Assembly: GCF_964213995.1 (NCBI RefSeq)
Contig: NC_135808.1
Location: forward strand, 50,406,001 to 50,470,000
Length of the DNA: 64,000 bases
DNA from: Mustelus asterias
Lineage: Eukaryota
Direction of reading: 5' to 3'
Position numbers and translations under genes: made by a program. Shown here piece after piece: positions 29,766 to 63,353 of the stretch. Positions within the stretch are counted from its first letter, which is position 1. Each line of letters starts with the position of its first letter. The notes beneath the pieces are model-generated. The model saw only the letters and a list, made by a program, of their open reading frames with translations, was not told the origin of the DNA and made no database searches.

Positions 29766-29814
29766 ATGATTTCAGCCATCCAGCTGCTCTGGCCTCTGGC
29801 ATTCTGCATCGCAG
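29766..29814 (+). CDS. IGKV: Ig kappa-type light chain leader exon (MISAIQLLWPLAFCIA-G)
   Basis: CACCATG Kozak context, hydrophobic signal peptide, and a phase-1 GT donor at 29815 that splices in frame to 30001. Confidence 0.92.
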
Positions 29815-30000
29815 GTACAAATCTCTCTCCTTCCACCTTGAATATTTTCCTGCTCTCCATTTCAATCCAATTCTCCTGACTTGTGATTGAAGGGAAAATG
29901 CTGAAAGGAGAGGAACAGTCAGTGTCTCCAACAATATGTCATTGTACAGCGTCTTTCTGTGACAGTTCTTACTTCACTCTGTTTCTCTATTACCCCTCAG

Positions 30001-30298
30001 GTATCAGTGGAGACATCATCATGACCCAGTCTCCCCCGGTGCTGTCAGTGAGCCTGGGCCAGACCGCCACCATCACCTGCACGGCCAGTCAATCTGTTAG
30101 CAGTTACGTGAGTTGGTATCAACAGCGAGAAGGACAGAAACCGGCTCTGCTGATCTATGATGCATCAAGTCGATTCACAGGAATATCCGACCGATTCACC
30201 GGCAGTGGATCTGGGACACAATACACCCTGACAATCAGCAATGTACAGAATGAGGATGTCGCTGATTATTACTGTCAGTACGGTTACAGCTCCTCCTA
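30001..30298 (+). CDS. IGKV: Ig kappa-type V segment (germline, unrearranged, open)
   Basis: Pyrimidine tract and AG at 29999-30000. [27 protein letters not shown]...WYQQ...LLIY...GSGSGT..DVADYYC, closely resembling the nurse shark NS4 kappa type. Confidence 0.97.
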
Positions 30299-30326
30299 CA
30301 CAGTGATACAGAGCCTTACAAAAACC
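30299..30326 (+). other. V recombination signal sequence, 12-bp spacer
   Basis: CACAGTG-ATACAGAGCCTT-ACAAAAACC. Heptamer and nonamer are perfect consensus; V-12/J-23 is the kappa configuration. Confidence 0.97.
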
Positions 30327-30329
30327 CCA

Positions 30330-31548
30330 ACACACACAGCACCACCTCCTGTACTGACACATCCCACAGTTTTATATAATATATAATAATGGACACACAG
30401 TCCCACCTCCTGGACTGACACATCCCACAGTTTTATATAATATATAATAATGGACACACAGTCCCACCTCCTGTACTGACACATCCCACAGTGTTATATA
30501 ATATATAATAATGGACACACAGTCCCACCTCCTGTACTGACACATCCCACAGTTTAATATAATATATAATAATGGACACACAGTCCCACCTCCTGTACTG
30601 ACACATCCCACAGTTTTATATAATATATAATAATGGACACACAGTCCCACCTCCTGTACTGACACATCCCACAGTGTTATATAATATATAATAATGGACA
30701 CACAGTCCCACCTCCTGTACTGACACATCCCACAGTTTTATATAATATATAATAATGAACACACAGTCCCACCTCCTGTACTGACACATCCCACAGTTTT
30801 ATATAATATATAATAATGGACACACAGTCCCACCTCCTGTACTGACACATCCCACAGTTTCATATAATATATAATAATGGACACACAGTCCCACCTCCTG
30901 TACTGACACATCCCACAGTTTCATATAATATATAATAATGGACACACAGTCCCACCTCCTGTACTGACACATCCCACAGTGTTATATAATATATAATAAT
31001 GGACACACAGTCCCACCTCCTGTACTGACACATCCCACAGTTTCATATAATATATAATAATGGACACACAGCACCACCTCCTGTACTGACACATCCCACA
31101 GTTTTATATAATATATAATAATGAACACACAGTCCCACCTCCTGTACTGACACATCCCACAGTTTTATATAATATATAATAATGGACACACAGTCCCACC
31201 TCCTGTACTGACACATCCCACAGTTTTATATAATATATAATAATGGACACACAGTCCCACCTCCTGTACTGACACATCCCACAGTTTTATATAATATATA
31301 ATAATGGACACACAGCACCACCTCCTGTACTGACACATCCCACAGTTTTATATAATATATAATAATGGACACACAGTCCCACCTCCTGTACTGACACATC
31401 CCACAGTTTTATATAATATATAATAATGGACACACAGTCCCACCTCCTGTACTGACACATCCCACAGTTTTATATAATATATAATAATGGACACACAGTC
31501 CCACCTCCTGTACTGACACATCCCACAGTTTTATATAATATATAATAA
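30330..31548 (+). repeat. 61 bp minisatellite, about 20 copies, in the V-J interval
   Basis: Unit GGACACACAGTCCCACCTCCTGTACTGACACATCCCACAGTTTTATATAATATATAATAAT (starts 30391, 30452, ...), highly homogeneous. Confidence 0.97.
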
Positions 31549-31725
31549 AGACAAGAAAGGAAACTGGACAAATTATTTGCACTGTCCACTACACACTCCA
31601 GTCCCTGTGGTGTCCACCGCTCGCTGAAGGCCTCGAGTTTCCCGCTTACTCTCCATGTCCACATATGAAGAGCAGCTGAAAGATTCATCATCTCAAATTA
31701 GAATTCTCAACTCTCCCGACAAAAC

Positions 31726-31995
31726 NNNNNNNNNNNNNNNNNNNNNNNNNNNNNNNNNNNNNNNNNNNNNNNNNNNNNNNNNNNNNNNNNNNNNNNNNNN
31801 NNNNNNNNNNNNNNNNNNNNNNNNNNNNNNNNNNNNNNNNNNNNNNNNNNNNNNNNNNNNNNNNNNNNNNNNNNNNNNNNNNNNNNNNNNNNNNNNNNNN
31901 NNNNNNNNNNNNNNNNNNNNNNNNNNNNNNNNNNNNNNNNNNNNNNNNNNNNNNNNNNNNNNNNNNNNNNNNNNNNNNNNNNNNNNNNNNNNNNN
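31726..31995. other. Assembly gap (270 N)
   Basis: Run of N between the V-side repeat and the J segment. Confidence 1.
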
Positions 31996-32013
31996 AGTGA
32001 GGCAGAGAGCAGA

Positions 32014-32052
32014 GGTTTTTGTACAGCTCCTGCACTGGAAGCTGTCAGTGTG
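32014..32052 (-). other. J recombination signal sequence, 23-bp spacer
   Basis: GGTTTTTGT (32014-32022), 23 bp, CAGTGTG (32046-32052). The heptamer reads CACACTG, one mismatch, with the essential CAC intact. Confidence 0.95.
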
Positions 32053-32087
32053 CCTTACGTTCGGTAAAGGAACCAAACTCAGACTGA
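32053..32087 (+). CDS. IGKJ: Ig kappa-type J segment (LTFGKGTKLRL)
   Basis: FGxG motif and a phase-1 GTAAGT donor at 32088 that splices in frame to the C exon. Confidence 0.95.
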
Positions 32088-32914
32088 GTAAGTAAAGCCC
32101 AATCCTCCGTTATTAACCCTTTCAATGCTGAAACTTTCTCAAACACAAATGCTGAATAGTTGAAGGTGTTGGTGAGGAAGCTGCAGTCAATGAAATGGTT
32201 GATTGAAGAACATTGTGTGGAACAGGGAGCCCAGCTGTATTTCTTTCCTTCCATTCCCCCCTTTAAGCAGCAAGATATAAGTAAGCAGCTTTTACCCACC
32301 GTGTGGAGGAGATCTGGACGTTTGCAGACTGTGCTCACATTCCTGCAGCATGGAGTGAAATCACTCTCTAGGCTCCTGTCAGTCTCAGTGTGACACACAC
32401 AGGCAGAGTTTGATGTGAAGTCGGACTCCCTGTCACACTCTCTGATATAACTGATCACAGCACCAGCACAGTGAGACACCGAGGTGCCACCTCCCCCAGC
32501 TTTCACTCTGCTCTCTCCACTCCCTGCTTATCTCTTGCTAAAGTTCTGATGACAAACAGCTACAGCAGGGCCCACAATCCAGTGGCTTCAGTGTTCCAGG
32601 CTTTTGGAGAGACTCTCAGTTACTTTCTCTCTGGGACGATTTCAGTCCGATATTTATCCCGGATCCAACATCACTGAAAATGCTGATTGTTCTCATTGCT
32701 GTGAGTGGGATCTTGCTGTGTACATGTTGTGACCAGTCCTCAGACAAGGTCCCTCGTTTGTTAACTTCCTGAACTCGATCCCAATTTTGTTTTGCTCCTG
32801 GGTGAGGAGTAATCAGCTGGAATCCCGCACTCGATTGGTCTCAACAGGGTTCATTTAAAATGGATCCCTTCACCCGTGGAAACCTTACACAGTCCACATA
32901 GTCCTTTATTAGCC

Positions 32915-33135
32915 TTTGAATCTCTACAGTGCAGAAGGAGGCTATTCAGTCCATCGAATCTGTACCAACTCTCTGAAAGAGCTTCTTACCCAGGCTCCCC
33001 ACCCTATCCCTGTAACCCTGCGCATTTACCATTGCTAATCCACCTAAAGGACACACTAGGGGTAATTTAGCATGGCCAATCCATCTGACCTGCAGATCTT
33101 TGGACTGTGGGAGGAAACTGGACCATCCGGAGGAA
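32915..33135 (-). mobile_element. HE1-like SINE 3' half in the J-C intron
   Basis: Reverse complement of TTTCCTCCCACAGTCCAAAGATCTGCAGG...ATTGGCCATGCTAAATT. Confidence 0.8.
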
Positions 33136-34699
33136 TGTCTCAACTCACATTCTGTCACACCCGCACCAGTACACAGAGCTCAGGTGTGCAGTTGGATTTT
33201 TAACCCATTTCCCTGTTGTTTCCTGAAAGGTAACAAACAAACATGTCTTTCACCCCAGAGTCAGTTTACTTTGAACTCAGACCATTTCCACATTCTGAGG
33301 TATAACTCAACAGCAGGTGGGTTTTGAATGTCTGCTGAGATGTGACAATCAGTCTCCATTGTTTCCGTAACAAAAGGAGATTAAAGTTTAGTCTGAGACA
33401 TTTTTTCTATCTCCATTTCTATTTCCTGTTTGATGAAATCCCTGACATCTTTCAGGTGTGACATTCCATCTTCTCTCAGGACAATCAGTCAAATATAACC
33501 CACATCGGAATTTTCCAGAAGCTGGTCACTTTACATTCTCGGCCATCTTGGCTCAGTCATCGTCTCATAGAAATTTACTGCACAGAAAGAGGCCCTTCAG
33601 CCCATCCTGTCTCTGCCGGCCATTAAGCACCCAACTATTCTAATCCCATTTTCCAGCACTTGGTTCATAGCCTTGTATGGTTTGGAATTTCAAATGCTCA
33701 TCTAAATACTTCTTAAATGTTGTGAGGGTTCCTGTATCTACCATTGTTTCAGGCAGTGAGTTCCAGATTCCCAACAGCCTCTGAGTGAAAAAGTTTTTCC
33801 TCCAATCCCTCAAAATCTTCTGCCTCTGAGATTAAATCTATGCTCCCTGGTTTTTGAATCTGCTGCTAAAAGGGGAAAAGTTTCTTCGTATCTGCTCTAT
33901 GTCTTCATAATTCTGACCTGCTGCGGTTATACAGGTCCTTGGTGAGGCCGCACTGGGAATATTGTGCGCAGTTTTGGTCTCCCTATCTCAGGAAGGATAT
34001 ATTTGCTCCAGAGGGAGTGCAGAGAAGGTATCCCAGACTGATTCCTGTTATAATGGGACTGATGTATGAGGAGACATTGAGTTGGTTAAGACTTGTATTC
34101 ACTGGAGTTCAGAGGCAACTCATGGAGACCTAACAGGTGAGGGGGATTAGTGAGGTAAATACATGGGGTTATGGGGTAAGAGTTGATGCAGACTCGATGG
34201 GCCGAATGGCCTCCGCCTGCACTTCAGGGATTCTATTGTCCATGTCTGTGCCGGCCACCAAGCACCTATCTATTCCAATCCCATTTTCCAGCACTTGGTC
34301 CGTTGCCTTGTTTGCTTTGGAATTTCAAGCGCTTATCTAAATGTTTCTTAAATGTTGTGAGTGCTCCCACCTCCACCACCCTTTCAGGCAGTGAGTTCCA
34401 GATTCCCAGCACCCTCTGGGTGAAAAGATTTCCCTCAAGTCCCTCAAAATCTGCTGCCTCTGTGATTAAGGGGAAAAGTTTCCTCATATCTACCCTATCT
34501 CTGTCCCTCGTAATTCTGTCTTTCTGCAGTTATACAGGGCCTTGGTGAGGCCACACTGGGAATAATGTGTACAGTTTTACTCTCCTTATCTGAGGAAGGA
34601 CGTTTTTGCGACAGAGGGAGTGCAGCAAAGGTTTACTGGAATGATTTCTGCGATAGTGGGATTGATGTAGGAGGAGAGATTGTGTTGGTTAAGATTATA

Positions 34700-35012
34700 T
34701 TTTTTTAAAGTTTATTTATGAGTCACAAATAGGCTTACATTTACACTGCAATGAAGTCACTGTGAAAATCCCCATGTGGGCACATTCCGGTGCCTGTTCG
34801 GGGATACTGAGGGAGTATTTAGCGTGGCCAATTCACCTAACCTGCACACCTTTTGGACTGTGAGAGGAATCTGGAGCACCTGGAGGAAACCCACACAGAC
34901 ATGGAGAGAATGTGCAAACTCCATTCAGACAGTGACCCAAGCTGGCAATTGAACCTGGGTCCCTGGCACTGTGAGGCAGCAGTGCTAACCACTGTGCCAC
35001 CGTGCTGCCCCC
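34700..35012 (-). mobile_element. tRNA-derived SINE
   Basis: CCTGGGTCCCTGGCACTGTGAGGCAGCAGTGCTAACCACTGTGCCACCGTGCTGCCC on +. Confidence 0.88.
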
Positions 35013-35040
35013 ACTGCAGTTCAGAAGAATGAGGGGGGAT

Positions 35041-36133
35041 CAACAAAGAACAAAGAACAGTACAGCACAGGAAACAGGCCCTTCGGCCCTCCAAGCCTGT
35101 GCCGCTCCTTGGTCCAACTCGACCAATCGTTTGTATCCCTCCATTCCCAGGCTGCTCATGTGACTATCCAGGTAAGTCTTAAACGATGTCAGCGTGCCTG
35201 CCTCCACCACCCTACTTGGCAGCGCATTCCAGCCCCCACCACCCTCTGTGTAAAAAACCTCCCTCTGATGTCTGAGTTATACTTCGCCCCTCTCAGCCTG
35301 AGCCCGTGACCCCTCGTGATCGTCACCTCCGACCTGGGAAAAAGCTTCCCACTGTTCACCCTATCTATACCCTTCATAATCTTGTACACCTCTATTAGAT
35401 CTCCCCTCATTCTCCGTCTTTCCAAGGAGAACAACCCCAGTCTACCCAATCTCTCCTCATAGCTAAGACCCTCCATACCAGGCAACATCCTGGTAAACCT
35501 TCTCTGCACTCTCTCTAACGCCTCCACATCCTTCTGGTAGTGCGGCGACCAGAACTGGACGCAGTACTCCAAATGTGGCCTAACCAGCGTTCTATACAGC
35601 TGCATCATCGGACTCCAGCTTTTATACTCTATACCCCGTCCTATAAAGGCAAGCATACCATATGCCTTCTTCACCACCTTCTCCACCTGTGTTGCCACCT
35701 TCAAGGATTTGTGGACTTGCACACCTAGGTCCCTCTGTGTTTCTATACTCCTGATGACTCTGCCATTTATTGTATAACTCCTCCCTACATTATTTCTTCC
35801 AAAATGCATCACTTCGCATTTATCCGGATTAAACTCCATCTGCCACCTCTCCGCCCAATTTTCCAGCCTATTTATATCCTGCTGTATTGCCCGACAATGC
35901 TCTTCGCTATCTGCAATTCCAGCCATCTTCGTGTCATCCGCAAACTTGCTGATTACACCAGTTACACCTTCTTCCAAATCATTTATATATATCAGAAATA
36001 GCAGAGGTCCCAGTACAGAGCCCTGCGGAACACCACTGGTCACAGACCTCCAGCCGGGAAAAGACCCTTCGACCACTACCCTCTGTCTCCTATGGCTAAG
36101 CCAGTTCTCCACCCATCTAGCCACTTCTCCTTG
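35041..36133 (-). mobile_element. 5'-truncated CR1 LINE (RT and tail) in the J-C intron
   Basis: GVPQGSVLGP..YINDL..KFADDTK in ORF 35189-36178, with a (TTCTTTG)n tail at 35041. Confidence 0.92.
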
Positions 36134-36267
36134 AGACGTGTATTGTCTCCAGACAGGACAGCGAGTGAGATTTTGCACATCCAGGCAGGTTGTGGGGGTT
36201 ACAGATAGTGTGACATGAACCCAAGTTCCCGGTTGAGGCCGTCCCCATGCGTGCGGAACCTAGCTAT

Positions 36268-36590
36268 CATTTTGGCAAATCCCAGTTTCGTGAAATTGGC
36301 CTTTTCCCAATTTAAAATGTTTACTCTCAATCGCTCTTTCCCCTTTTCCATAACAACTCTAAATCTAACTGTATTATGATCACTATTACCCAAATGCTCT
36401 CCCACTGATACACCTTCCACAAGCCGAGATTCATTCTATAAAACTGCCCAAAACTGCCCCTTCTCTTGTTGGGATTGTTCCGTGCTGGTTAAAAAAATTC
36501 CCCCGGAATGGATTTGCAGAATTGTGTAACGTTGAAACATTGACACTGATTTGATCCCAGTCAATATTCGGGAAGTTGAAAGCCTGAAAT
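36268..36590 (-). mobile_element. Old CR1 endonuclease relic adjoining the C exon acceptor (shared with the second cluster)
   Basis: FNFPNIDW and VSVGEHLGNSDHN motifs. The same relic starts at about 63035 on +. Confidence 0.8.
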
Positions 36591-36624
36591 GGCAGTGATT
36601 AAAATTCCTTCTCTTCTCTTTCAG

Positions 36625-36953
36625 CCCGTGAGAATTCACAACCCACGCTGACCCTGCTGCCCCCCTCCCCGGAGGAGGTCAAGACCAAGGGCACTGCCAC
36701 CCTGGTGTGCCTTGCCGATCACTTCTATCCCGACCAGGTGGAGGTGAAATGGAAGAAGGATGGTGCAGCCATTTCCAACGGGGTTCAGACCAGCAACTAC
36801 CTGCGAGCTTCAGACAACACCTACAGCGTCAGCAGCCTGCTGACCCTCTCTGGCTCCGACTGGGAGTCCAACGCCCGCTTCTCCTGTGCCCTCACCCACG
36901 TGAGCCTCTCCTCTCCCCTCAGCAAGAGCGTCAGGAGATCAGAATGTGCCTAG
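36625..36953 (+). CDS. IGKC: Ig kappa-type constant exon (copy 1)
   Basis: TTCTCTTTCAG acceptor. RENSQPTLTLLPPSPEEVKTKGTATLVCLADHFYP..W..TYSVSSLLTL..FSCALTH..SECA*: C1-set Ig domain with a penultimate interchain Cys. Confidence 0.97.
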
Positions 36954-37227
36954 AGTGTTAGAGACAGTCCACAGAGGAGACACAACATGGAATAGAACAG
37001 GGGTGAGCTGGGAGGGCAAAGGTCATTGTCAGCACTGAGTTACAACTCTCTTCCTTCTCGGGACTGAGTCTGAGACACTTCTGAGGGTCAGAGGTTAAAG
37101 CACGTTATTGGGATAGTGTAGAGGGAGCTTTACTCTATATCTAACCCCGTGCTGTTCCTGTCCTGACAGTGTCGACTCGTGATAACAAGTATAACCTCTG
37201 GAAGATGCTGAAGAGTGTCAGCTGTAC

Positions 37228-37458
37228 AATAAAAATGTGACCCTGTGAAGTGTCTGCTTCAGTAAACCAGACCTCCTTCCTGCTCACCCTGCAGTTACAA
37301 TTGAAGCTTTAGTCACTGTTTAAAGGGACAGGATTCTCATGTTATTGAGAAAATCTCCACAAGTGTTTTAATAAACCTCCATTCTCCCTGTGAATTTCTC
37401 CAGCTTCCTCTGGCTGGGCTGTTTTTTCTGTCAATGTCAATGTGTAAAAGGTAATAAA
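37228..37458 (+). terminator. Candidate polyadenylation signals of the kappa transcript
   Basis: AATAAA at about 37228, 37370 and 37453. The last is followed by a GT-rich tract, and the latter two are retained in the inverted copy. Confidence 0.6.
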
Positions 37459-38939
37459 CATTAAGAATATTCAGTTTCTGTCTGGTGAGTGCTTTGGAAA
37501 TGTCCCACCTCCCCATCAGCTGATTGGCTGCATTTCACCAAATGATTGTCCGGATTGGCTGCTTGGCCTGTCAATCAAAGACACATCTGCAGAAGATTGG
37601 ATTCAAAGCCAATGATCATTCATTTGAAAATGATCAGTTTGATCTGGAATCTCTTGAGTGACAAGATTGAAAACAGAGAAGAAACTGAAAGTTGCTGGGA
37701 TTAAACCATCACAATCACAATTCTCCACCCCATATTCACCACCTGCCTCTTGACCTTAACCATCTCACGTGGTCTCACTGCTCCCATAGTTTCAATCAGA
37801 GATAAGACCATCTCTGATTACTTCCTTGTATCACTCCCCAGCCACATCCCCCTTCCACACCCCCAACCCTACCCCCTTCTGTATCCATCCCTGCAAAAAC
37901 CTATTCCCCAATTCACTTACAACGCACTTTCCAAATTCCAACTATCTTAAATTTCATTTTACCAGAAGCCAGTTGATTCTCAGACTAGCTGAGCAGAGAG
38001 ACAACCCCTTTGTTTCTCCACACCCAACTCTTCCAGCTGTGTCCATTGATCATTGAGCCAATGATCATCACTTGTCTTTATCAATCTAATTGGATGAACA
38101 ATATAAATATCAAAGGTTGCAATTGCTAGCGCATTGACAAGGGCTGAGTTGGTGAAAATGCCAGTTTGGAAACAGGGAGGGATGGGAGCACAGTAAGAAT
38201 GTTACAGGACTGTTAATCCTGAGGGTTTTTCTGGGAGGTATGGGTTCAAATCCCATTATGGCACTGGGAGGAATTTGAATTCTTTCCATTTCAGGATACT
38301 GGTGTTCGACAAGGCAATATGCTGTGGTCCTCAAACTGTTGAGCCCGCTTTCTTTAAAGAGAACACATTTAAATGAACCAAAACCATCATAAATCCTGCA
38401 TTGACACAAAGCAAAACATGTCTTTTTCCTTTATAACATCCCAACATAATTTGTAATTTCTAGGAACAGACATGTTTATCTGTAAAGCAGTTTGATAATT
38501 AGTGACTTGTGTTAAGTCTTTGTATCTTTGAGATCTCCCTTCTCTTGAACATTGTGTTTCTGTGAACGAAATCTATTCTTGGCCTTTTTCAGCTGCATTA
38601 TCTTGGAGAGGACATTATCCCACAGAGATCACTGAGTGCTTTTCACAACTCTTTTACTCTTCTTGGATTCTCAAACTAAAGTGTAACATTTCGTATTCTT
38701 TCCCACCAAGAATCTGATGAACCCTGCGCTGCTCAAAAACCGACCCAGAAGATTGGCATATGAAGCATCACTAAATCTTACATAGAAACATGGAAACTAG
38801 GAGGAGGAGGGGGCCATTCGGCCCTTCGAGCCTGCTCCACCATTCATTATGATCATGGCTGATCATCCAACTCAACAGCCTTCCCCTGTGTATCCTTTGA
38901 TTCCCCCTCCAACTCAAATGCTTTATCTAACTGAACCAG

Positions 38940-39925: not shown

Positions 39926-40109
39926 TACAGACTGCTTCTTGAAAGCATGCAACGTTTTGGCCTCAACTGCTTTCTGTGGTAGCAAATTCCACAGGCTGAC
40001 CACGCTCTGGGTGAAGAAATTTCTCCTCATCTCTGTCCTAAACGCTCCATCCTTAATCCACAGACTATAAGCCCTGGTTCTAGACACCATCGGGTATATC
40101 CTTCCTGCA

Positions 40110-45278: not shown

Positions 45279-45279
45279 C

Positions 45280-48129: not shown

Positions 48130-49126
48130 ATGATATGGCGGGACAAGGACAGTGGGGCCCGGGGTCCCTGATACCTGAATATATAATTAAGAAGGACAAA
48201 CTCATTAAACAGATGATAAAAGGGGGATGGGATTTAGACCACCCGCTAGACCAATAATGAAAGTGGTTGGAAAAAGAAAAGAAAGACAGAACAAAGAAAA
48301 TTGGGGTTCTCTAAGTTCACCAATTGGCTGGATTAATTGGACAGGTCGCAGTCTCGAGTAAGAAATGGGCTGACGACAAAGCAAAAATTAAAATGTTGGA
48401 AACACGCAATAGCAAATGAGAGAAGCGGAACCAACTTTTAGAGGACCCTGTCGGGGGATTCTTGCCTCCCTATGGGCCGGCCGTACAACCCACGGCACCA
48501 GTGGGAGACCCTGATGAGGAAGAGGTCCATGATCTCGCTCCCATAACTCGGACCGGGACGTTACAGCATCCCACTGCCCGATATAAAACCTTTACCCCAG
48601 GTGAATGATGACAGATTTTGGCACCCCTGGGAAGGCTCCAGCCAAGGATTAAACAACAAAGGGGTGAAGGAGCCTCTGAATTTGGAGAGCGACTCTTTAG
48701 AGTATACCAAGAACGTTCGGGAATACCCGAACAGATAGAGCCTTTTTACAAGCATTTAAAGATGGGCTATTGCCAGCTCACCAGAAAATCCTTAAAATGG
48801 GAGTTCTCAATACCCAGGCTTATGATGAATTAGTAGAATGGGCATCTGGAATTAGAGATGGACCAGATGAGAAACCATACCCACGAATAAAACAGGAAAC
48901 AGTTAGTGCAAACAGTGGGGGGGCTAAACCCAAGGGTGCGTGCTATAATTGTGGGAAACCGGGTCACTTTGCCAGAGGCTGTAGAGCTCCAAAGGGGGGC
49001 GGTAGAAAAGCCCCAACCTGCCTGTTTTGTAATAAGGTTGGCCACACTGAGGCCACCTGTTGGAGCAAGCACGGCAGACCGAGTCAACTGCTTCGCCCTC
49101 CCCTCATTGACGAGGGAGGGAATTGA
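48130..49126 (+). pseudogene. gag: ERV gag (disrupted) with two CCHC zinc knuckles
   Basis: CYNCGKPGHFARGC and CLFCNKVGHTEATC, a PPY-type motif upstream, and several stops and frameshifts. Confidence 0.8.
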
Positions 49127-52100
49127 CGGGAGGCAGCCCCCACAAGCCTGGGCACAAAAGAGGGTAGAATCTACGTGTCTGCACTAGTAGGGGGAAGGCA
49201 ATGTGAAATGCTGGTGAACACAGGAGCCTCCATATCTATCACTGATCTACCCTTGCCCACCACCAATAAAATGATCTATATAAGGGGTGTTAACGGACAG
49301 AAGACCCCTGCCTACTTAAGTGAAACCACCCTAGTAGAAATTAATAACCTGTATATACCTATGCGATTTTACGTATGTAGAAATAATGAAGGAACTATTA
49401 TGGGAAATGACCTAATGAAGGAATACAAAGTCTGAATAGATTGTGGGAAAGGTGAATTGATTTGGCCCCGCCCCGATGGGAGAAAAGACAGGGTAGGAAC
49501 ATATGTAAACCATTTAGGGACCATCCATGCAGCATCTGCAACGGGATGCGACTGGCATTTAGACGGTTCTGGATTTGGCGCCATCTGCGCCTCCGTCCCC
49601 GGTGTGTGGGCGGAAACGAAACTGGATACTGGATTCGTCAAAATTGACCCTATAATAGTGGTAGGGCCAGAACATAAACCACATCGGCAAAACCCGATTA
49701 AGCCCAAAGCCAAAAAGGCAGTGGAGGAAATTGCGACGGGATTGGTAAAGAGAGGGATCCTACGGGAAACCAGTCGTACCAGCAACTCCCCCACCTGGCC
49801 CGGTGTCTAAACCGGACGGGAGCTATAGATTAACCATTGATTATACAGCTTTAAATAAAGTGACCCCCAAGCTACACCCCATCGTGGCCTCGCCCCTCCA
49901 CCATTTTAAACGGGTTGTCACCATCCCATGGAATCTTCACGGGATTGGATATCGCCAACGGTTTGTCGTCCATTCCCCTGGACCCTAATTCGCAAGATAA
50001 ATTTGCATTTACCGTGGGCGATAAGCAGTGCACATGGACTAGGCTCCCGCAAGGCTTCCATAACAGCCCGGCTATATTTCACCGGGTAATGAGTAAGATA
50101 TTAGAACAGGTGGAAGTCCCAAAAGGGAGCACAATTCTGCAGTATGTAGATGATATCTTAATAGCCTCCGAAACTAGAGCAGAACATCAGACGGTGCTAT
50201 ACTCAGTCTTGAAACACTTAGAAGAACAGGGACTAAAGGCGAGCCCCAGGAAAGCCCAAATAGGGAAAGAGCGGGTGTTATATTTGGGACACCTGATATC
50301 CCAGGGGACCAAAGAAATGCCATTGGACAGGAAAACGGCCATTCAGCAAATGCCAAGACCAGTAACCGTCCGAGGGGTCAGGAAGGTTTTGGGACTGTTT
50401 AACTACAGTTGCAACTTTATACTGGAATTTGCCAGGCGAGCCGAACCAATACAAAGGCTAGTAAAAGGGGGGAAACCCGCTCTTGAGGTTATAGAGTGGG
50501 GATCAGAACAGGAAGATGCATCTCGTAAACTAAAAGCAGAACTAATGACAGCTCCGGGACTTGGACTGCCCAACGCTAATAAAGATTTTCACATCTATTG
50601 TAATAATGAGGGGGGTTTTATTCGGCAGTAGTTACACAGGTCCATGGGGACAAGCAGCGGCCAGTGGGTTATTATTCCACAGCGGAGGGCCCCGCAGTAG
50701 CCGGGTTACCCAGATGTATAGCCGCACTGGATTGAGCGGCATGGGCAGTAAGGGTCAGTGAGCCCATCATAATGACGGGGAATATTGTTTTGCACACCAA
50801 ACATACCTTAGTGGAAATGCTGAACACAGGAAAATTGCGGTCTGTCTCAAATGTGAGAAGGGTAAAGTGGGAGGCAGTGCTTCTCCCACCCACTAAGTCC
50901 ATCACCATTGTACGAGACATGGGAACGAACCCCGCAGAAGGAATGTTAGGTGAAGGGGACCCACACAACTGTGGGGACGTAGATGAGGAGGTAGACGAAG
51001 GTAGAATAAAAGATGTGTCCCTGGAGGCACCAGATATGGTCCTATTTGTGGATGGATCACGGAAATATGTAGATGGGTCACCACGAACAGGATGGGCGGC
51101 AGTGAATGCGGATTTACAAATTGTTCAAGCAGGAAGAATAGAGGGAGGCATGTCAGCACAAGTAGCGGAACTGGTAGCCTTGACTCAGGCTTTTACAGAG
51201 GCTGCGGGGAAAAGGGTCAACATTCACACCGATAGTAGATATGCGTTTGGAGTTATACATGACTATATGACAGTTTGGGGGAGAAGGGGATTTATCACAA
51301 TGGGAGGCACTCCAATTAAACATGGCCAGATAATAACAACCTTATTGGGAGCCAGCGAGCTCCCATCGGAAGCCGCAGTATTGAAGGTAAAAGCACACCA
51401 CAAGGAACCAGATAAGCAAAGTCCTGAGTGGTATATGTTTAAGGGAAACCAGGCAGCCGACAGAGCGGCACGAGCTGCCTTGGAAACAGGGGAAGTGCAG
51501 GCCTTGCCAGCTGCCTCGAGTAAAATCGAAACCCCGATAGACATCTCACAGCTCCATGCTGATACCCCTGAAGAAGAACGTCTGAGGGGGAAAACTCAAA
51601 AGGAGCTACACCTGATGGAGGGGGGTGGATGGAGATTAAATGATAAAGTCCGAGCCCCAGAATGTATCCAGCATACTCTGATGCGGTTACATCATGGGCT
51701 GTCGCATGTGGGGAGGGATGCCACGGTGACCAGTGTGGGGAAGGAATGGTGGTGGAAAGGAATGGGAGGGGACATTGCCCGATATTGTCACCGGTGCATA
51801 ACCTGTGCACAGTATAACCCTGGAAGACCCGTAAAAATCAAGATGGGGCACCAGCCTCGCCCTCAGGGTCCCTGGGAACACCTGCAAGTTGACTTTACAG
51901 GACCTCTCCCGCAGTCACACGGGAGAACCTGCTGCTTGGTAATTATTGACCAATTCACCAGATGGGTAGAAGCATTCCCGACGAAAAATTGTACTGCCAC
52001 TACAGTGGCCAGAATACTAGCTGAGGAAGTTATCCCAAGATGGGGGGTGCCTTTGCAAATAGACTCCGTTCAAGGCACGCACTTTACGGGGAAGGTTGTA

Positions 52101-52718
52101 AAAACCACATGTCAACTGATGGGGATAAGACAGATATTTCACATACCCTACCACCCTCAAAGCTCGGGGATGGTGGAACGTATGAATAGGACACTTACGA
52201 TCTCCTAGGCAAAGGCCATGCAGGAATCAGGAAAGAGATGGACAGAAGTATTACCCGCCATATTAATGGAACTCAGAGCCACCACAAATCGGACCACTGG
52301 GCTGACACCATATGAGCTAATGCCCGGAAGGGCTATGCAACTGCCCGAGTCCATCATTACCGGAGGGACAGATGGAGGCCCATTACGGGACAAGATTAGG
52401 CGATATGTATTAGAATTAAGCTCCCAATTAAAAGATATGCGGAAAAAAGTACGGGACAAACAAATAGCGGTCGATGAGAACAATGAACTAGAACAGACTC
52501 CGGAGATACCCCCGGCAGGCAGCAAGGTTACGGTAAAAACCTTACCCGAAAAACCTGGATTCGCCCCCGAAGGGAAAAGCCCCTATGAGTTTATCATTCG
52601 TGGAGACACCTGTGCCTGTATAGATATGCAAGGCAGAGGTGTCTGGAAACACTGGGCCCAGTTGAAAGAATACACTGGCACCAATCGGAAAACATGTAAT
52701 GGACAACAAAACAGTTAA
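49127..52718 (+). pseudogene. pol: ERV pro-pol (protease, RT, RNase H, integrase), disrupted
   Basis: LVNTGA (DTG to NTG); KPDGSYRLTIDY, RLPQGFHNSP, QYVDD; FVDGS, AQVAELVAL, HTDSRY; HHCC, QVDFTG, YHPQSSGMVERMN. Confidence 0.93.
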
Positions 52719-55460: not shown

Positions 55461-56469
55461 CTGTTCTATGTTCTATGTTTAATCGTAGTTCTGATTACCC
55501 CAAGTTACAGCAGGAGATTAACCTCAGTTGTTAATACAAATAAAGATGTTGTCCTTGAGTATTTTTGAACACCATGAATTGTTGGAACTTGTGTTACCAG
55601 TTAGTTATTTTTAAATGACATGATTAATAATATGAAATTTGTGATGTTCCGATAACATGCAACAAATTACATAATTTAAACCATCTCACATTGATGATAA
55701 TTCTGTAAAATTATATACTGCCGTTGGAATTGCGTGTGCCATCTATTGTTCAAGGTTTTCCAGATGTAAAAACACTGCAAAGCTTAAAACCTAGCCAGCT
55801 TGGAATCAAACCAAAACATTTCTAATCAAGTAACAATTGTTATTGTTATATGTATTGTGCTTGTTATTGTTCTAAAATGCAGGGATTCTGATCTGGAGCA
55901 GTTCAAAAATAAAAACGACTTAAATTAAGAGGGTTTGGATATACCCAAGAGAATCAAATCCTGGAGAGCCTTAACCAATTTTATATGTTGATATATATTG
56001 TGTATTGATACAACATAATTCTGTGGAAGAAAAGGCTATTTATTCCAAACATTTAACCATTCTTTGCCATAATTTGTAATAATTTGCACAATTAACATTA
56101 ACATGAGAGGAAGTGAAACCGGATTACAAGGGAAAGAGAGAGAGAGAGAGAAAGAGTTGGTGACTGGCCTTACAACCAGACTCAAAAATCTTGCAGCATT
56201 CGACTGGACACAACAGATAGCTCATTCGGTTATCTGTGTTTTTAAAGAGCTGTGTCTGGCTCAGTGACCACGGAACACTGTTGTTTACCTCATGAGACAA
56301 TCTGTCTATAGAGGGATCATTTCTGCTCAAACAAATGATCATATTAGATATAATGTAAGATACATCATACAAAGATCGGAGCTGTATAGTATATGATTTT
56401 AAGTACACTAAGCTCTCTATGCAAGGGGGGTATGTAGTTAAATGTATAATGCACTGGCTTTTGTGGCCA

Positions 56470-57340
56470 AAGGTATTGCCCACCATACTAATGAGATTAA
56501 GGGTTGCCACAAACCAAACAACCGGATTAACCCCTTATGAGCTAATGACAGGACAGGCGATGCAATTACTAGAAAGCACCATAACAGGTGGGACTGATGT
56601 AGGTCCACTAAAAGATAAAATCAGGAGATATGTTTTGGAACTAAGCACCCAACTAAAAGGGATGCGTAAATTGGTAAAAGACAATTAGGAGATAAGAGAC
56701 ACAGAGAGAGAGCTTGAAATGCTCCCTGACATCCCAACAGCGGGACGTCCGAGTGAAAACAGTACCTGACAAATCAGGGTTTGTACTAAAATGGGATGGG
56801 CCGTATGAAGTTATAATTAGTGAAGATACCTGTGCCTGCATAGACATAAGGGGGAAAGGTCATTAAACTCAGTTGAAAGAATATGCTGAAACTAATTGGG
56901 AAATTATGTGATATCCTCCCATTGCAGGAATGTACAGACAATAACCAACCTCCAAGCAAGCTGAACTGGTGCGCGGTGTTTCGCGCGGGCGGTAGCCTTT
57001 GGACCGTTGTATAACGGTCGCGCGGGTTATTAGTAAGTGATAAGATGTTTTTCATGTTACTTCTCACGACCCTGGCCCTGTTAGCTATAGTGGGAAAGTA
57101 TAGATGGAATTATGAGAATTTGGGGATGGGACACAGTGAACATCTCTGTGACGATGACTCTGTCTATTGTATGAACACCTTTGTGTATATGTCTTATCTC
57201 TATGCATCACAATCGAATTTGAGCAAGTGCTGGGTCTGTTCACACATTCCCACGCACGGAGGAAAGGGAGGAATTCCTTTATTCCCTATCCCTTTATCAG
57301 CTCCAGATACACAATATCGGGACCTCTCAGGCCAGTTCTG
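56470..57340 (+). pseudogene. env: Second ERV integrase C-terminus followed by an env N-terminal fragment
   Basis: VLPTILMRLR..TTGLTPYELMTG..GPLKDKIRRYVLELSTQLK and KWDGPYEV, then a hydrophobic signal segment and SNLSKCWVCSHIP (gamma-type SU CWxC motif). Confidence 0.75.
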
Positions 57341-58077
57341 ACGTTATCAGTAAAAACAGAACTGTTATACATTTTCTTAATCTGATTCTCCGCCTTACAT
57401 TAGTTTAAAATTAATTTCATTTAATGTCCATATGTTAACATAAATTATTGCCAAATGCCTCAGCTAACCACTTAGTACTTTCCAGCATGATGGTTTCTCA
57501 TTCGTCCATTACAACCGGACATTACTCACTTGTTGGCTAAAGCTATTTCCCTGTTGCCTGGATGCGGTAGATGCTACCGTAAGGGTCAAAGTGGAGGTTC
57601 CTACCAGCTCACTGCCAAGCTGAATAGACATGTGTTGCTGCATCCAGGGTCATGTCTATTCTATGTCTGGGCTGTGAATTGATTTAAACATTATGTTGCA
57701 CAATGTGTTCCCTCATCGGGATCTCCCAGATATGAGTTTGCAAACTAATGGGTTCCCAGGCCTTTGGCTCGAAACATTTTACCTTTCCCACCATACCTTT
57801 CAGTACCTTGCATTGGCCAAAGTGTACAATCACAGTAAAATACTTGAAATACATTTAGAATATCAACTTCTATGTCTTAAAATCATAGTTGTTTTAATTC
57901 TCTTACTGCGCTCACATGTGGGTAAGTTATCATTTAACTCCTTACTGTTCGCTCTGCCAGTGCTTGTACTCTCTAAAAATGAAGTGAAATGTAAAATAAT
58001 CCCTTTCATCTCCCCATGGGGCTTGGTCTCAGATTGTTCTTGTGAAGCACGTGAATACAAGTTGTATTATATTGGCA

Positions 58078-58715
58078 GTTGTGTGTGTGGTGTGTGTGTG
58101 ATGCCTCCCATGTTTGATGAGCTGGGAATTGTGTGTGTGTGTGTGTGTTTTCGTGTGTGTGTGTTTTCGTGTGTGTGTGTTTTCGTGTGTGTGTGTTTTC
58201 GTGTGTGTGTGTGTTTTCGTGTGTGTGTTTTCGTGTGTGTGTGTGTTTTCGTGTGTGTGTGTGTTTTCGTGTGTGTGTGTGCGTCTGGGTGTGTGTGTGT
58301 TTTCGTGTGTCTGGGTGTGTGTGTGTGTGTTTTCGTGTGTGTGTGTGTGTTTTCGTGTGTGTGTGTGTTTTCGTGTGTGTGTGTTTTCGTGTGTGTGTGT
58401 GTGTGTTTTTGTGTGTGTGTGTGTTTTCGTGTGTGTGTGTGTTTTCGTGCGTGTGTGTGTGTGTGCGTCTGGGTGTGTGTGTGTTTTCGTGTGTCTGGGT
58501 GTGTGTGTGTGTTTTCGTGTGTGTGTGTGTTTTGTGTGTGTGTGTACGTCTGTGGGTGTGTGTGTGCGTGTGTGTTTTCGTGTGTGTGTGTGTTCGTATG
58601 TGAGTGTGTGTGTGATGCCACTGTTGTTGATGAGCTGGGAGTTGTGTGTGTTTGTGATGCCTCCTACGATCGATGAGCTAGGAATTGTGTGTGTGTGTGA
58701 TGCCTCCTGTGATTG
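58078..58715. repeat. Compound (GT)n / GTTTTC microsatellite within a degenerate minisatellite
   Basis: Long GTGT tracts punctuated by TTTTC, flanked by repeated GTGATGCC...GATGAGCTGGGAATTGTGTG units. Confidence 0.95.
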
Positions 58716-59267
58716 ATGAGGCAAATGCTTTAGGGGGTAAGGGGGGGTAAGATGGCACGGGGGTGGGTGAGGGTTCGGATGCATTGTGGCTTTGGGTGAG
58801 TTTGAGATTGGGGGATATTGTGAAGGGCAGGTCAGGTCACGGGGTGGTTGGTGTTTTGGTGCTGCCAATCGGTCAGGTGGGTATTCAGGAAGGTGAGGGG
58901 ATCAGACAGGGGACATGTTTCAGTTTTACACTGACCACGGTGTTGGAACTGCTCTGAATCGTTCTAACTTTTCCTGGGTAACTATTCTGGGCAGTAAGTC
59001 AGAAACATCTGAATTCTCCAGATTTCAGTCCGAGATTCAGAGAGTTCCAGACTCAGGGGAATTCCCCATATAGATCCGGGATACGACCATCCGGAGATTG
59101 GAAGTTCTGGGTCAGGAGCTCAGACCAACCAAAGATGAGATAAAGAGGTGGACAATGAGAGTTTGAAAGGATCAAAGTGAGTTGGAGAGGTGGAGGGGGT
59201 TATGGAGGGAATTCCAGAGCTTGGAACCCAGGCAGCTGAAGGCTTGGCCACCAATGGTGGAGACATT

Positions 59268-60572
59268 GGGCCTGATTTTACCATTTTCATTCCAAGTGCT
59301 GAATCTGGGCGCAATTCAGATCCGACTGAGAAATCTGCTTTCAGGCGCCCCCCATACACACCCAGCTTGATTAAAAAAACCGCGGGTCCCATTCGCGGTG
59401 TGTGCGGGGCTTAGCGCGCCCGAAACGATCGGAGCTCTGAACTGCGCATGCGCAGTTGGAAACAAATGTGAAAAAGTGTGCCCAAGTCAGATCGCTCCCG
59501 GACCGCAGAAAGCGGAGAAAGTGGCTCGGGAGCGAAAAGCGGGAGCGTTGGCCCCCACAGACATCACTGTCCCCCTTATCAACCCCCCCCCGCTACCCAG
59601 ACCGATCGTGACTCCTGCCCCCTTCCCCCCCCCCCACCGATCACCCGCAGAGTGGCAGCAGACTCCCCTGCCCCCCTCCCCCACCAGAGATCCATCTGCG
59701 CCCCCCCCTGACCAGTGCCCCCCCCTGACCAGTGAGCGATCGGGCCTCCCCCCCCCCCTCTTCACCAGAGACACATCTTACCCGCCTCCCTCCTCCCCCC
59801 CCATCTCAGCGAATGATCGGGCCTCACTCCCCCCACCCAGAGGAACATCTGACCCGCCTCCTCCTCCCTCCCCACCAGACAATGATCAGCCCTCCCCGCC
59901 CTCCCCACCACCAGACAACGATCGGGCCTCCCTCCACCCCCTCCCCATCTCCCCACCAGAGATACATCTGACCCGCCTCCTCCTCCTTCCACCCCCCCTC
60001 CCCCCCGCCAAACCAGACAACGATCGGGCCTCCCTCCCCCCCACCCCGCCCCCCACTCCCCACCAGAGATACATCTGACCCATGTCCTCCTCCTGCGCCC
60101 CCTCCCCACCCCCCACCCCCAACCAGACAACGATCTGGCCTCACTCCCCTCCCCCCACCCCCCCAACCAGAGAATGTTCTGACCTGCCTTCCTCCTCCCC
60201 CCCACCACCGATCTGAGTCAGGGAGCCGCTGGAAGCTCTGAACTCGCTCTTCAGCAGCTGGAGCGCCCGATTCAGACTTTTATTCAGCATGTCCGTTTCG
60301 GCGCGATTCCGGGTCGGCGAACGTGGCGGTAAAGGGGGAAATGCTGATAAAGGTGGGCGGGCAGTTCATTAATTCAATTAAAATACATGCAAATACATTT
60401 AAATCACCGTTGCGCTCATTTTGGGTGCGAAGCGGATTGCCACCATTCCCGGGTTTCGGTAAAGTAGCCATCTGCGCGGGCGCGGGCGTGGATCGCGTTA
60501 ATGGCCTCACACCCGACTTTACCACGTTTTCCCACCCAAAAACGGGCGCGACGCATTGGTAAAATAGGGCCC
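59268..60572. mobile_element. Non-autonomous DNA transposon, probably PIF/Harbinger
   Basis: 16-bp TIRs GGGCCTGATTTTACCA / TGGTAAAATAGGGCCC, 3-bp TSD ATT on both sides, CpG-rich subterminal regions, C-rich internal repeats and no transposase. Confidence 0.8.
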
Positions 60573-61556
60573 ATTATGATCAGGAATGTACGAGAGGCCA
60601 GGATTAGAGGAACACAGATATCTCGAAGGGTTGTGGGGCTGGAGGAGATTCCAGAGAGAGGGAGGGAGTGAGGACATGGAGGGATTTGAAAACAAGGATG
60701 AGAAGTTTAAAATCAAGACATTGCTTGATCAGGAGTCAGTGTAGGCCAGTGAGCACAGGGGGTGATAGGGGAACGGGACTTGGTGTGAGTTCAGACTGGG
60801 ACAGCAGAGTTTGGGATGAGCTGATGTGTGCGGAGGGTGGAATGTGGGAGAACGGCAAGGAGTGTATTGGGATAGTCACGTCTAGAGGAACAAAGGCTTT
60901 TTCAGCAGCAGATGGACCGAGAACAGCAGGTCGCTCTCATGGACAAGATGAGCTCAGAGAAGCCATGAGGGGGGATTGGAGAGAAACTAGAGAAAGATGT
61001 GAGTTCAGGGCTCGGGCGGGGGAGGTAGAATTAGAGGATGTTTGTCCAGATGGTGAGAGGAAGGAAGGGACGTGGCAGAGGCAGCTGATTGGATTGTCTC
61101 AATCTTAGTCACAAAGACCTCGGTGAGATCCTCACACTTGTTGCTGGAGGTGAGGGGGGAGGGGACAGGGGAGAGGGGTTTAAGAAGTTGGTCTGCAGTT
61201 GGGTAAAGAAGGCGGAGCTTATCTTCTCATTCCAGGATGATCCTGGAATAGTCAGCAGTTTTAGCAGATGAGAGTAGGAGCCGGAAGTGTTTGAAGTGCT
61301 CCAGCCAGATCAGCCAGTGGATGGATGAACCAGTTGTCCACCAGATCCTTTCAAGTCTGTGTCCCTGGGATGAAGTGAGTGGAGATGAGGCCGGAGCAGG
61401 GGGAACGGCCGGGGGGAGAGGGAATCATGGTTTTATTGGGGATTAGGATATCAAAGGTGGGGGTGAGGGGGAGCCAATCAGTCGCTGCAGAAATGTTGTG
61501 GTGATCGGAGGGCCAGAGACTCGATAGTTGGGATTTGGAAAGTGCGGTTGTAATTG

Positions 61557-63353
61557 AATGGACACAGCTGGAAGAGTTGGGTGAGGAGAAACAAAGGGGT
61601 TGCCTCCCCACAGAGCTGGTCTGAGAATCAACTGGCTTCTGGTAAAATGAAATTGAAGATAGATGGGAATTGGAAAGTGCGGTTGTAAGTGGATTGGGGA
61701 ATAGGTTTTTGCAGGGATGGATACAGAAGGGGGTAGGGTTGGGGGTGTGGAAGGAGGATGTGGCTGGGGAGTGATACAAGGAAGTGATCAGAGATGGTCT
61801 TATCTCTGATTGAAACTCTGGGAGCAGTGAGACCACGTGAGATGGTTAAGGTCAAGGGGGAGGTGGTGAATATGGGGTGGAGAATTGTGATTGTGATGGT
61901 TTAATCCCAGCAACTTTCAGTTTCTTTTCTGTTTTCAATCTTGTCACTCAAGAGATTCCAGATCAAACTGATAATTTTCAAATGAATGATCATTGGCTTT
62001 GAATCCAATCTTCTGCAGATGTGTCATTGATTGACAGACCAAGCAGCCAATCAGGACAATCACTTGGTGAAATGCAGCCAATCAGCTGATGGGGAGGTGG
62101 GACGTTTCCAAAGCACTCACCAGACAGAAACGGAATATTCTTAATGTTTATTACCTTTTACACATTGACATTGACAGAAAAAACAGCCCAGCCAGAGGAA
62201 GCTGGAGAAATTCACAGGGAGAATGGAGGTTTATTAAAACACTTGTGGAGATTTTCTCAATAACATGAGAATCCTGTCCCTTTAAACAGTGACTAAAGCT
62301 TCAATTGTAACTGCAGGGTGAGCAGGAAGGAGGTCTGGTTTACTGAAGCAGACACTTCACAGGGTCACATTATTATTGTACAGCTGACACTCTTCAGCAT
62401 CTTCCAGAGGTTGTACTTGTTATCACGAGTCTGCACTGTCCCCATCAAACTCTCCCAGGACAGTAACACCACAGGGTTAAATACAAAGTAAAGCTCCCTC
62501 TACACTATACCAATAACGTGCTTTAACCCCTGACCCTCAGAAGTGTCTCAGACCCAGTCCCGAGGAGGAAGAGAGTTGTAATTCAATGCTGATAATGACC
62601 TTTGCCCTCCCAGCTCACCCCTGTTCTATTCCAAGTTGTGCCTCCTCTGTGGACTGTCTCTAACACTCTAGGCACATTCTGATCTACTGACGCTCTTGCT
62701 GAGGGGCGAGGAGAGGCTGACGTGGGTGAGGGCACAGGAGAAGCGGGCGTTGGACTCCCAGTCGGAGCCAGAGAGGGTCAGCAGGCTGCTGACGCTGTAG
62801 GTGTTGTCTGAAGCTCGCAGGTAGTTGCTGGTCTGAACCCCGTTGGAAATGGCTGCACCATCCTTCTTCCACTTCACCTCCACCTCATCGGGATAGAAGT
62901 GATTGGCAAGGCACACCAGGGTGGCAGTGCCCTTGTTCTTGACCTCCTCCGGGGAGGGGGGCAGCAGGGTCAGCGTGGGTTGTGAATTCTCACGGGCTGA
63001 AAGAGAAGAGAAGGAATTTTAATCACTGCCATTTTCAGGCTTTCAACTTCCCGAATATTGACTGGGATCAAATCAGTGTCAATGTTTCGATGTTGCAGAA
63101 TTCTGAAAATCCATTCCGGGGGAAATTTTTTAACCAGCACGGAACAATCCCAACAAGCGAAGGGGCAGTTTTGGGCAGTTTTATAGAATGAATCTCGGCA
63201 TGTGGAAGGTGTATCAGTGGGAGAGCATTTGGGTAATAGTGATCATAATACAGTTAGATTTAGAGTAGTTACGGAAAAGGGGAAAGATCGATCAAGAGTA
63301 AACGTTTTAAATTGGGAAAAGGCCAATTTCACGAAACTGGGATTTGCCAAAAT
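61557..63353 (-). repeat. Inverted duplicate of 36268-38047 (C exon, 3' UTR and flanks)
   Basis: Collinear reverse-complement match from CATTTTGGCAAATCCCAG to CCAGCTGTGTCCATT. Confidence 0.95.
62668..62996 (-). CDS. IGKC: Ig kappa-type constant exon (copy 2, convergent cluster)
   Basis: Intact acceptor, same 329-bp length as copy 1, and four amino-acid differences (T>N, D>N, Q>E, R>S). Confidence 0.97.

Follow-up and report, generated by a model that had tools for sequence, protein, structure and literature searches.

Kappa light-chain miniloci that lie in alternating orientation raise the question of whether V and J segments are joined across cluster borders by inversion. The first-pass annotation of the window analysed here (64,000 nucleotides of Mustelus asterias DNA, positions 50,406,001-50,470,000 of contig NC_135808.1; G000:C8 coordinates follow whole-contig numbering) had proposed such joining between neighbours, as a source of combinatorial diversity or editing. 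We asked what the array around the window says about this proposal.

The kappa array and its alternating polarity

The proposal started from a complete plus-strand L-V-J-C cluster, a convergent intact C exon 25.7 kb downstream and evidence of a divergent cluster upstream. All three were located, as clusters c8, c9 and c7, respectively:

29766..29814, + strand: leader exon of c8, with TATAAA at 29700-29705
30001..30298, + strand: Vκ exon of c8, V-set, open frame
30299..30326, + strand: V8 RSS with 12-spacer, perfect
30332..31548, no strand: 61-bp minisatellite, 20 copies, a sequence repeat in the V-J interval of c8
32014..32052, - strand: J8 RSS with 23-spacer, heptamer with 1 mismatch, nonamer perfect
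32053..32087, + strand: Jκ segment of c8, same sequence as all 21 J in the locus
36625..36953, + strand: Cκ exon of c8
62668..62996, - strand: Cκ exon of the convergent cluster c9, intact
G000:C8:50475949-988: J of c9, 6.0 kb past the window end
G000:C8:50477071-369: V of c9, 7.4 kb past the window end
140..4957, - strand: flank lying upstream of c7, the divergent cluster; interrupted, inverted copy of window positions 24107-28679 (83-93% identical)
G000:C8:50403374-703, - strand: V of c7, 2.3 kb ahead of the window start

The second C exon is thus accompanied by a J and a V of its own, and the residues N/N/E/S versus T/D/Q/R do tell the C exons of c8 and c9 apart, as had been suggested; the two exons differ by 8 nt. 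The arms around the two C exons (36268-38047 vs. 63354-61557) are 95.3% identical. Copy number and variant units of the minisatellite are usable markers for distinguishing clusters.

The window sits within a 0.92-Mb shark Igκ array (C8:50.17-51.09 Mb) of 22 C, 21 J and 18 V. Eighteen of the 22 clusters are complete, each carrying a single V, a single J and a single C in one polarity and with a 12-spacer RSS at V and a 23-spacer RSS at J; one cluster consists of C only and three (c4, c10 and c12) lack V, each of these keeping L, RSS23-J and an intact C. RAG was considered as the cause of V loss in these three and rejected, the break spanning leader intron to minisatellite, away from any heptamer. 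RSS are retained at 21/21 J and 18/18 V, all near-perfect, and no joined VJ was found among these segments. The J segments are identical in 21/21 cases, and 8 of the 108 C residues are variable. Some clusters carry identical copies of V (V1 and V9) or of C (C4 and C10; C11, C13 and C18).

All 30 of the closest C homologues listed are shark or sawshark proteins (79-91% identical), most of them named Ig kappa light chain; none of the 30 is an expressed sequence from this genome (best 91%). The V exon shares 79% identity with a light chain from nurse shark, the next light-chain family in the genome is at most 48% identical to this Igκ, and a structure database search returned generic Ig matches only. 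On sequence grounds, the array is shark Igκ, with C and V nearest to elasmobranch kappa (NS4/type III). It resembles the nurse and horn shark miniloci of this type in having one L-V, one J and one C in one polarity with RSS of 12 at V and 23 at J, but differs from them in its strict alternation from a 75-kb inverted pair, the lack of germline-joined VJ, the three V-less clusters and the single signal joint described below. The V-J interval, about 0.5 kb in nurse shark (PMC2193156), is here stretched by the minisatellite to 0.6-4.0 kb.

Along C8:50.17-51.09 Mb the cluster strands read -+-+-+-+-+-+-+-+++-+-+. Neighbours are 26-32 kb apart and opposed in 19 of 21 pairs (shuffle p = 0.0002, with switches that are not mutually independent); strict alternation fails at c16-c18. 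The pattern amounts to eight copies of a single ~75-kb unit made up of two clusters in inverted orientation: C-C spacing is 74.1-76.8 kb for minus clusters and 68.4-79.3 kb for plus clusters (7 intervals each), blocks at offsets near 75, 150, 225 and 300 kb are 99.5-99.8% identical, and 50.153-50.724 Mb is collinear with one 77-kb reference unit. It should be noted that some of these blocks could be two haplotypes set in tandem, which would lower the true copy number. Misassembly of the inversions, named in advance as a possible refutation, is unlikely; the array is free of assembly gaps, which makes eight repeated orientation misjoins improbable. The likely source of the alternation is tandem duplication of one inverted (back-to-back) cluster pair; as one unit repeated eight times, the pattern provides no independent evidence of design. 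More generally, the way clusters are oriented in an array can follow from whichever unit was amplified. A RAG origin was also considered for a 138-kb inversion (50.730-50.868 Mb) and rejected, since its ends fall not at RSS but within shared homology, upstream of L16 and close to C18. A search with a CTCF-like consensus gave 21 one-mismatch matches, 0 perfect ones and no pattern common to all units.

The signal joint in c7

The V-J interval of c7 contains, 3.2 kb upstream of the window start, two further RSS fused to one another:

G000:C8:50401313-50403938, - strand: c7 from L to J, in the order L-V-RSS12-interval a-RSS23/RSS12-interval b-RSS23-J
G000:C8:50393670-997, - strand: C exon of c7
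G000:C8:50402750-50402816 (L027:2750-2816), 67 bp: signal joint RSS23/RSS12, direct sequence, junction at 50402777/50402778

The fusion of the 23- and 12-spacer RSS is exact and head to head, heptamer to heptamer with 0 bases between. Its spacers are the same as those of the V and J RSS of the locus, and each half runs on into its normal interval (628 bp for interval a, 1425 bp for interval b). The pattern has a single match in 3.68 Gb, in strict and in looser form, with 0 matches for reversed controls. Judged by its sequence, with exact fusion and both halves traceable, the element is a RAG signal joint. The joint rests on one assembly. Among 23 sequencing runs listed for the joint region, the best contained 7 of 15 sampled words; no RNA run was among them, which carries no weight as to expression. 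In 4 of these runs, which may come from other species or individuals, no read spans either the joint or a control V-deletion junction with 3 assembly copies, so that the blank says nothing about the joint.

The two sides of the joint differ in ancestry. Interval a of c7 equals that of c11 in length, microsatellite and minisatellite code, including one unit limited to these two clusters, and an 846-bp exact run between them starts at the junction. On the V side, c7 differs from c11 by 1 mismatch in 3000 bp, vs. 79 in 2999 bp on the J side; the comparison pair c11 and c13 shows 10 and 7 mismatches, respectively. As a control, 210 cluster pairs were compared. Eight of them differed at no more than 6 positions over 1140 bp on the leader side; within the first kb beyond J, the 6 of these without c7 had 0-4 mismatches, whereas the 2 with c7 had 14 and 15 (all-pair median 20). 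The J side of c7 occurs once in the assembly, its nearest copy being 8 mismatches per kb away. With no near-identical copy of the J side to serve as donor, deletion in cis, joining in trans and exchange between two diverged alleles all fit.

Homology-based exchange also yields chimeric clusters in this array (the c8/c14 intron, c16); for this reason mosaicism by itself is not unique to c7, only its coincidence with the joint.

The spacers c6-c7 and c7-c8 align to other repeat units in the same direction. Inversion between neighbours was accordingly rejected as the source of the joint, because the repeat unit is collinear with the DNA on either side and there is no reciprocal coding joint or joined VJ. 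The earlier idea of inter-cluster joining therefore survives in part: RAG appears to have linked a pair of different V-J units on at least one occasion, but not by neighbour inversion.

Origin of the joint

We favour, with a probability of about 0.6, an ordinary shark Igκ minilocus array whose alternation likely stems from tandem copying of the ~75-kb inverted pair, and in which the c7 joint is likely the trace of a single RAG join, made in the germline, between two distinct V-J units of the same orientation. RAG would have paired a 23-RSS, from the J side of a c11-like unit, with a 12-RSS from the V side of a second unit that shares its polarity. In cis, with J upstream and V downstream, the signal joint would stay on the chromosome while a circle of at least one 75-kb unit carried the coding joint away; had two chromatids or homologues been joined in trans, the coding joint would have gone to the other product. 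That RAG acts in the germline at shark kappa is established in the case of coding joints (PMC2193156), and among the 6 distinct V genes located in C13 stretches of this genome, 5 already carry a fused J. If germline, the joint is a RAG product that became fixed in the genomic DNA of a shark Ig cluster, as are the NS4 genes joined in the germline (Lee et al. 2000, PMC2193156) and the hybrid joint that PMC2193153 describes from the horn shark germline. Those joints lie inside a single cluster and are of the coding or hybrid type, whereas that of c7 is a signal joint with sides drawn from two units; PMC2193156 has 0 occurrences of the phrase "signal joint".

Lewis & Wu 2000 (PMC2193153, Fig. 2B ii) postulated that D segments arose from intercluster signal joints between V and J, in the layout V-12, 23/12, 23-J, giving shark evidence for events i and iii only. 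The layout of c7 is the same, with RSS on both sides that are 12/23-compatible with V and J. It differs from a D segment in this scheme in lacking a junctional insertion; with 0 coding bases between the RSS, the putative D would be of zero length, and the chimeric cluster would permit one-step or two-step joining. A bolder reading, which we advance tentatively and consider rather less probable, is that the joint is heritable and represents the missing intermediate in this model; c7 would then be a light-chain gene with a zero-length proto-D that B cells could join in two steps, RAG would cross cluster borders in this tightly packed array, and the V-less L-J-C units would be available as acceptors.

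Alternatively, the joint could be genuine yet of somatic origin, the assembler having threaded its path through the repeat array along a molecule from a B cell in which clusters or alleles had been joined. Near-identical repeats favour odd assembly paths, and the joint sequence is single-copy. We consider it unlikely: a rare event of a minority cell type would have to win the consensus, and the within-cluster coding joint, the commoner somatic product, was assembled at 0/21 J. A read from an excised circle would show the J side twice, and it is seen once. A plain misjoin, for its part, should not be able to yield an exact heptamer-to-heptamer fusion. Even a somatic joint would still represent RAG joining across V-J units, in lymphocytes.

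Joining between clusters

Could alternation nevertheless be a design maintained for joining between neighbours by inversion in B cells? The geometry is as had been supposed: V and J of neighbours are opposed and 12/23-compatible, so that their joins would be inversional, over 28-46 kb from c1 to c16. Every RSS is near-perfect, and c4, c10 and c12, with L, RSS23-J and intact C, could serve as acceptors. In zebrafish, inversional inter-cluster IgL rearrangement occurs, with joins shown in cDNA (Zimmerman et al. 2008, PMC3014032), and there too V-J-C clusters are closely linked with some V opposed to some J. Zebrafish V are, however, often inverted relative to their own J, while here every V points the same way as its own J and whole clusters alternate, as known from genomic sequence. 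Nor does c7 hold a signal and a coding joint bounding an inverted segment, as in the zebrafish type, its flanks being collinear and a coding joint absent.

Neither of the proposed benefits found support. With all 21 J identical and C differing by few residues, inter-cluster joining would add almost no diversity. As to editing, the geometry of inversion should leave an already joined VJ-C intact, so that it would not be edited out; a deletional leapfrog could remove it. The amplified unit already accounts for the alternation, which fails at c16-c18, and the sole footprint of inter-cluster joining is not inversional. Moreover, the C13 light-chain family shows both orientations among germline-joined genes that are unable to rearrange, and rearrangement of nurse shark IgH stayed inside the minilocus in 97 cases, barring one possible exception (PMC2435157). 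Maintenance for neighbour joining is accordingly very doubtful. B cells probably still join V to J mostly inside the cluster, because the own J is far closer (0.6-4.0 kb, vs. 28-72 kb to the nearest foreign J).

Least probable of all is that a V-J circle excised from one cluster was re-inserted into another, whether through homologous recombination or through RAG acting at an RSS: this would give the same four-RSS layout in a repeat-rich V-J interval with no need for a reciprocal coding joint, but the V and J sides would then share one host cluster, whereas their ancestries differ, interval a is wholly c11-type while interval b differs from its first repeat unit on, the V7-RSS and RSS-J7 borders are untrimmed, as in unrearranged clusters, and a further exchange, independent of the first, would have had to occur at the same place.

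With halves derived from two V-J units, a signal joint provides direct evidence, at the sequence level, that the border between such units can be crossed by RAG. The c7 joint fits the one germline event in the Lewis & Wu scheme that was left without shark evidence, the proposed origin of D segments, and the three V-less clusters provide a natural test of somatic joining between clusters.

The Igκ array around the window

The first-pass annotation placed in the window a complete plus-strand L-V-J-C cluster (here c8) and, downstream, an intact opposed C exon, which belongs to the convergent cluster c9. Both are present, and the 61-bp minisatellite that separates V from J in c8 follows the V recombination signal (RSS) in every cluster of the array, in ~4 to ~60 copies.

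Features of c8 and the second C exon
window 29766-29814, +: leader exon of c8
window 30001-30298, +: V exon of c8, with a perfect 12-spacer RSS attached
window 30332-31548: 61-bp minisatellite, directly 3' of the V RSS
window 32053-32087, +: J of c8, preceded by a 23-spacer RSS
window 36625-36953, +: C exon of c8
window 62668-62996, -: second intact C exon

The 30 longer homologues of the C exon are all shark or sawshark proteins (79-91% identity), mostly named kappa light chain. A broken retrovirus-like element lies between the two C exons (window 48701-52205), with zinc knuckle, aspartyl protease, reverse transcriptase, RNase H and integrase each in a separate frame. An unbroken LINE-type frame of 1007 codons, with endonuclease and reverse transcriptase domains, occupies window 19984-23007.

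Searching the genome with C, V and J queries and scanning 1.06 Mb of surrounding sequence yielded 22 C, 21 J, 21 leaders and 18 V. All of them lie at 50.17-51.09 Mb on G000:C8, the sequence that carries the window (50406001-50470000), and they are numbered here by cluster, c1 to c22; there are no assembly gaps inside the array. Frames are open in 18/18 V and 22/22 C, a perfect 12-RSS is found on 18/18 V and a 23-RSS on 21/21 J, and none of the 18 V and 21 J is germline-joined. Because the minisatellite varies in copy number, V lies 0.6-4.0 kb from its own J, compared to 28-72 kb from the nearest foreign J; this variable distance might tune cluster usage.

Incomplete units, and repeats in or beside the array
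G000:C8:50282193-50290402: c4, V and its RSS gone; promoter, leader, RSS23-J and intact C kept
G000:C8:50507870-50516079: c10, as c4
G000:C8:50582600-50591057: c12, as c4
G000:C8:50977573-50977900: c20, an intact C exon on its own, without matches to L, V or J; convergent C21 12 kb away
G000:C8:50124331-50134974: 30-bp satellite, 10.6 kb
G000:C8:50877467-50890562: 4.4-kb unit, ~3 near-identical tandem copies
G000:C8:51042108-51071539: 29-kb satellite, period near 54 bp

The V of c4, c10 and c12 was lost in a deletion spanning the leader intron into the minisatellite. Leader and C phases are compatible, and a leader-C transcript from these clusters would be in frame.

Origin of the alternation

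Strand switches in 19 of 21 neighbour pairs (shuffle p = 0.0002, a value that counts dependent copies as independent). On the same strand, C exons of c1-c16 are spaced 74.1-76.8 kb (minus) or 68.4-79.3 kb (plus) apart, and long blocks at offsets near 75, 150, 225 and 300 kb are 99.5-99.8% identical. A single 77-kb unit, containing one minus and one plus cluster, is collinear with 50.153-50.724 Mb, and the cluster flanks are of two types, each tied to one orientation. These observations point to a single inverted duplication followed by tandem amplification. The alternation breaks at c16-c18, at a 138-kb inversion (G000:C8:50730066-50868548) within which the partner clusters are missing, leaving three consecutive plus clusters. 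RSSs were rejected as its breakpoints, since its ends sit in shared cluster homology. Clusters c8 and c14 share a J-C intron of the opposite-strand type: the first 3 kb after J8 (window 31996-35039) are 98.2% identical to the opposite-strand c11, with the outer flanks of c8 being of plus type. Homology-based germline exchange between opposed clusters therefore occurs.

A second light-chain-like family (G000:C13:60.06-61.42 Mb) served as a control. Its 28 C matches form two blocks, with spacings mostly of 9-35 kb; orientation switches 10 times in 27, and ten matches in succession share one strand. Ten sampled stretches contained six distinct V, five of which, with both strands represented, are already fused to J; the sixth is not joined and has a 12-spacer RSS nearby. 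Mixed orientation thus arises among genes unable to rearrange. Five more C matches, all plus and 18-29 kb apart, lie at G000:C26:15.09-15.19 Mb; the two that were sampled carry an unjoined V with a 12-spacer RSS, plus another 12-spacer RSS-like site ~440 bp upstream on the opposite strand.

A signal joint within c7

The V and J searches each gave one extra partial match, and the two abut at 50402777, within the V-J interval of the minus cluster c7, 3.2 kb upstream of the window. A J-type RSS (nonamer-23-heptamer) is fused exactly to a V-type RSS (heptamer-12-nonamer) with 0 bases lost or added, giving the order L-V-RSS12-interval a-RSS23/RSS12-interval b-RSS23-J-C, where the slash marks the joint. 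It is the sole match in the 3.68-Gb assembly with strict and looser patterns alike; reversed-pattern controls gave 0 matches. Since no misjoin can fuse two heptamers exactly, a real molecule must have carried the joint.

Sequence comparison traces the V and J sides of the joint to distinct units. The 628-bp interval a matches c11 in length, minisatellite code and microsatellite, and has one minisatellite repeat variant exclusive to c7 and c11; the 1425-bp interval b departs from its first minisatellite unit onward. The V side of the junction matches c11 exactly over 846 bp; J7 agrees with c11 and c13 for 65 bp before diverging, and their private variants are missing from it. Over 3 kb, the V side shows 1 difference between c7 and c11 and the J side 79; the corresponding figures for c11 and c13 are 10 and 7. 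Near-identity on the leader side is seen in 8/210 cluster pairs, and differences per kb after J number 0-4 in the six pairs without c7 vs. 14 and 15 in the two with it (all-pair median 20). Against a two-unit origin, however, the C region of c7 is again closest to c11/c13 (6-10 differences per kb), and further chimeric clusters exist (c3, c8/c14 and c16).

Had neighbours been joined by inversion, the spacer would be flipped, with a VJ coding joint at its far end. This source was rejected: the spacers on both sides of c7 are oriented as in other units, both sides of the joint have the minus-cluster flank type, and no coding joint was found in the C8 array. We propose instead a single 12/23 event between two same-polarity units. 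For a cis event, J would lie upstream of V, so that the signal joint would stay and the coding joint be lost on a circle; in trans, the event would lie between chromatids or homologues and might have paired two diverged alleles.

The assembly might have captured a B-cell molecule, making the joint somatic. No sequencing run found by the search contained even half of the query words, and in four of the runs the joint was unbridged, as was a 3-copy control junction. Somatic capture is unlikely given that within-cluster coding joints are absent from the assembled array; in our judgement this absence, the known germline RAG activity at shark κ and the joined genes in the same genome make a germline origin probable. 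Re-insertion of an excised V-J circle into another cluster is very improbable, as both sides would then come from one host, and those of c7 differ in ancestry. Globally, we give a probability of about 0.6 to the reading in which an inverted pair was amplified and a single signal joint formed between clusters, likely in the germline and not by inversion.

Consequences of inter-cluster joining

The array map bears out the earlier proposal that neighbour V-J joins are inversional by geometry; joins to the next-but-one cluster are deletional (~68-77 kb in c1-c15). The functions proposed for such joins, combinatorial diversity and editing, fared less well. Since J is identical in 21/21 copies and C varies at 8/108 residues (mean difference 4.4 nt between copies), an inter-cluster join would yield almost the same protein as a local one. 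A joined cluster has no RSS, and inversion around it leaves it intact; from the map, its removal would require a deletional leapfrog. An inversional diversity or editing system is thus unsupported, and improbable, on what was testable.

Shark Ig joining is described as within clusters in PMC3014032, PMC5192425, PMC8355894 and PMC12227049, the last adding that the way clusters are distributed in genomes is poorly known. PMC2435157 gives IgH rearrangement within the minilocus in 97 cases with one possible exception, and PMC2193156 gives germline coding joints at NS4; PMC13433984 contributed no specific point. D segments have been postulated to stem from recombination between clusters in which signal joints formed and gained junctional insertions (PMC2193153), the shark evidence there concerning the other two events only. 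The c7 layout is the one postulated, but with an insert of zero length. In the literature searched, with subscription papers mostly outside it, neither an alternating array of shark κ clusters nor a germline signal joint between clusters is described, and the novelty of both is provisional. It is the signal joint, not the alternation, that gives the locus its significance, and the V-less c4, c10 and c12 offer natural acceptors with which inter-cluster joining could be tested.
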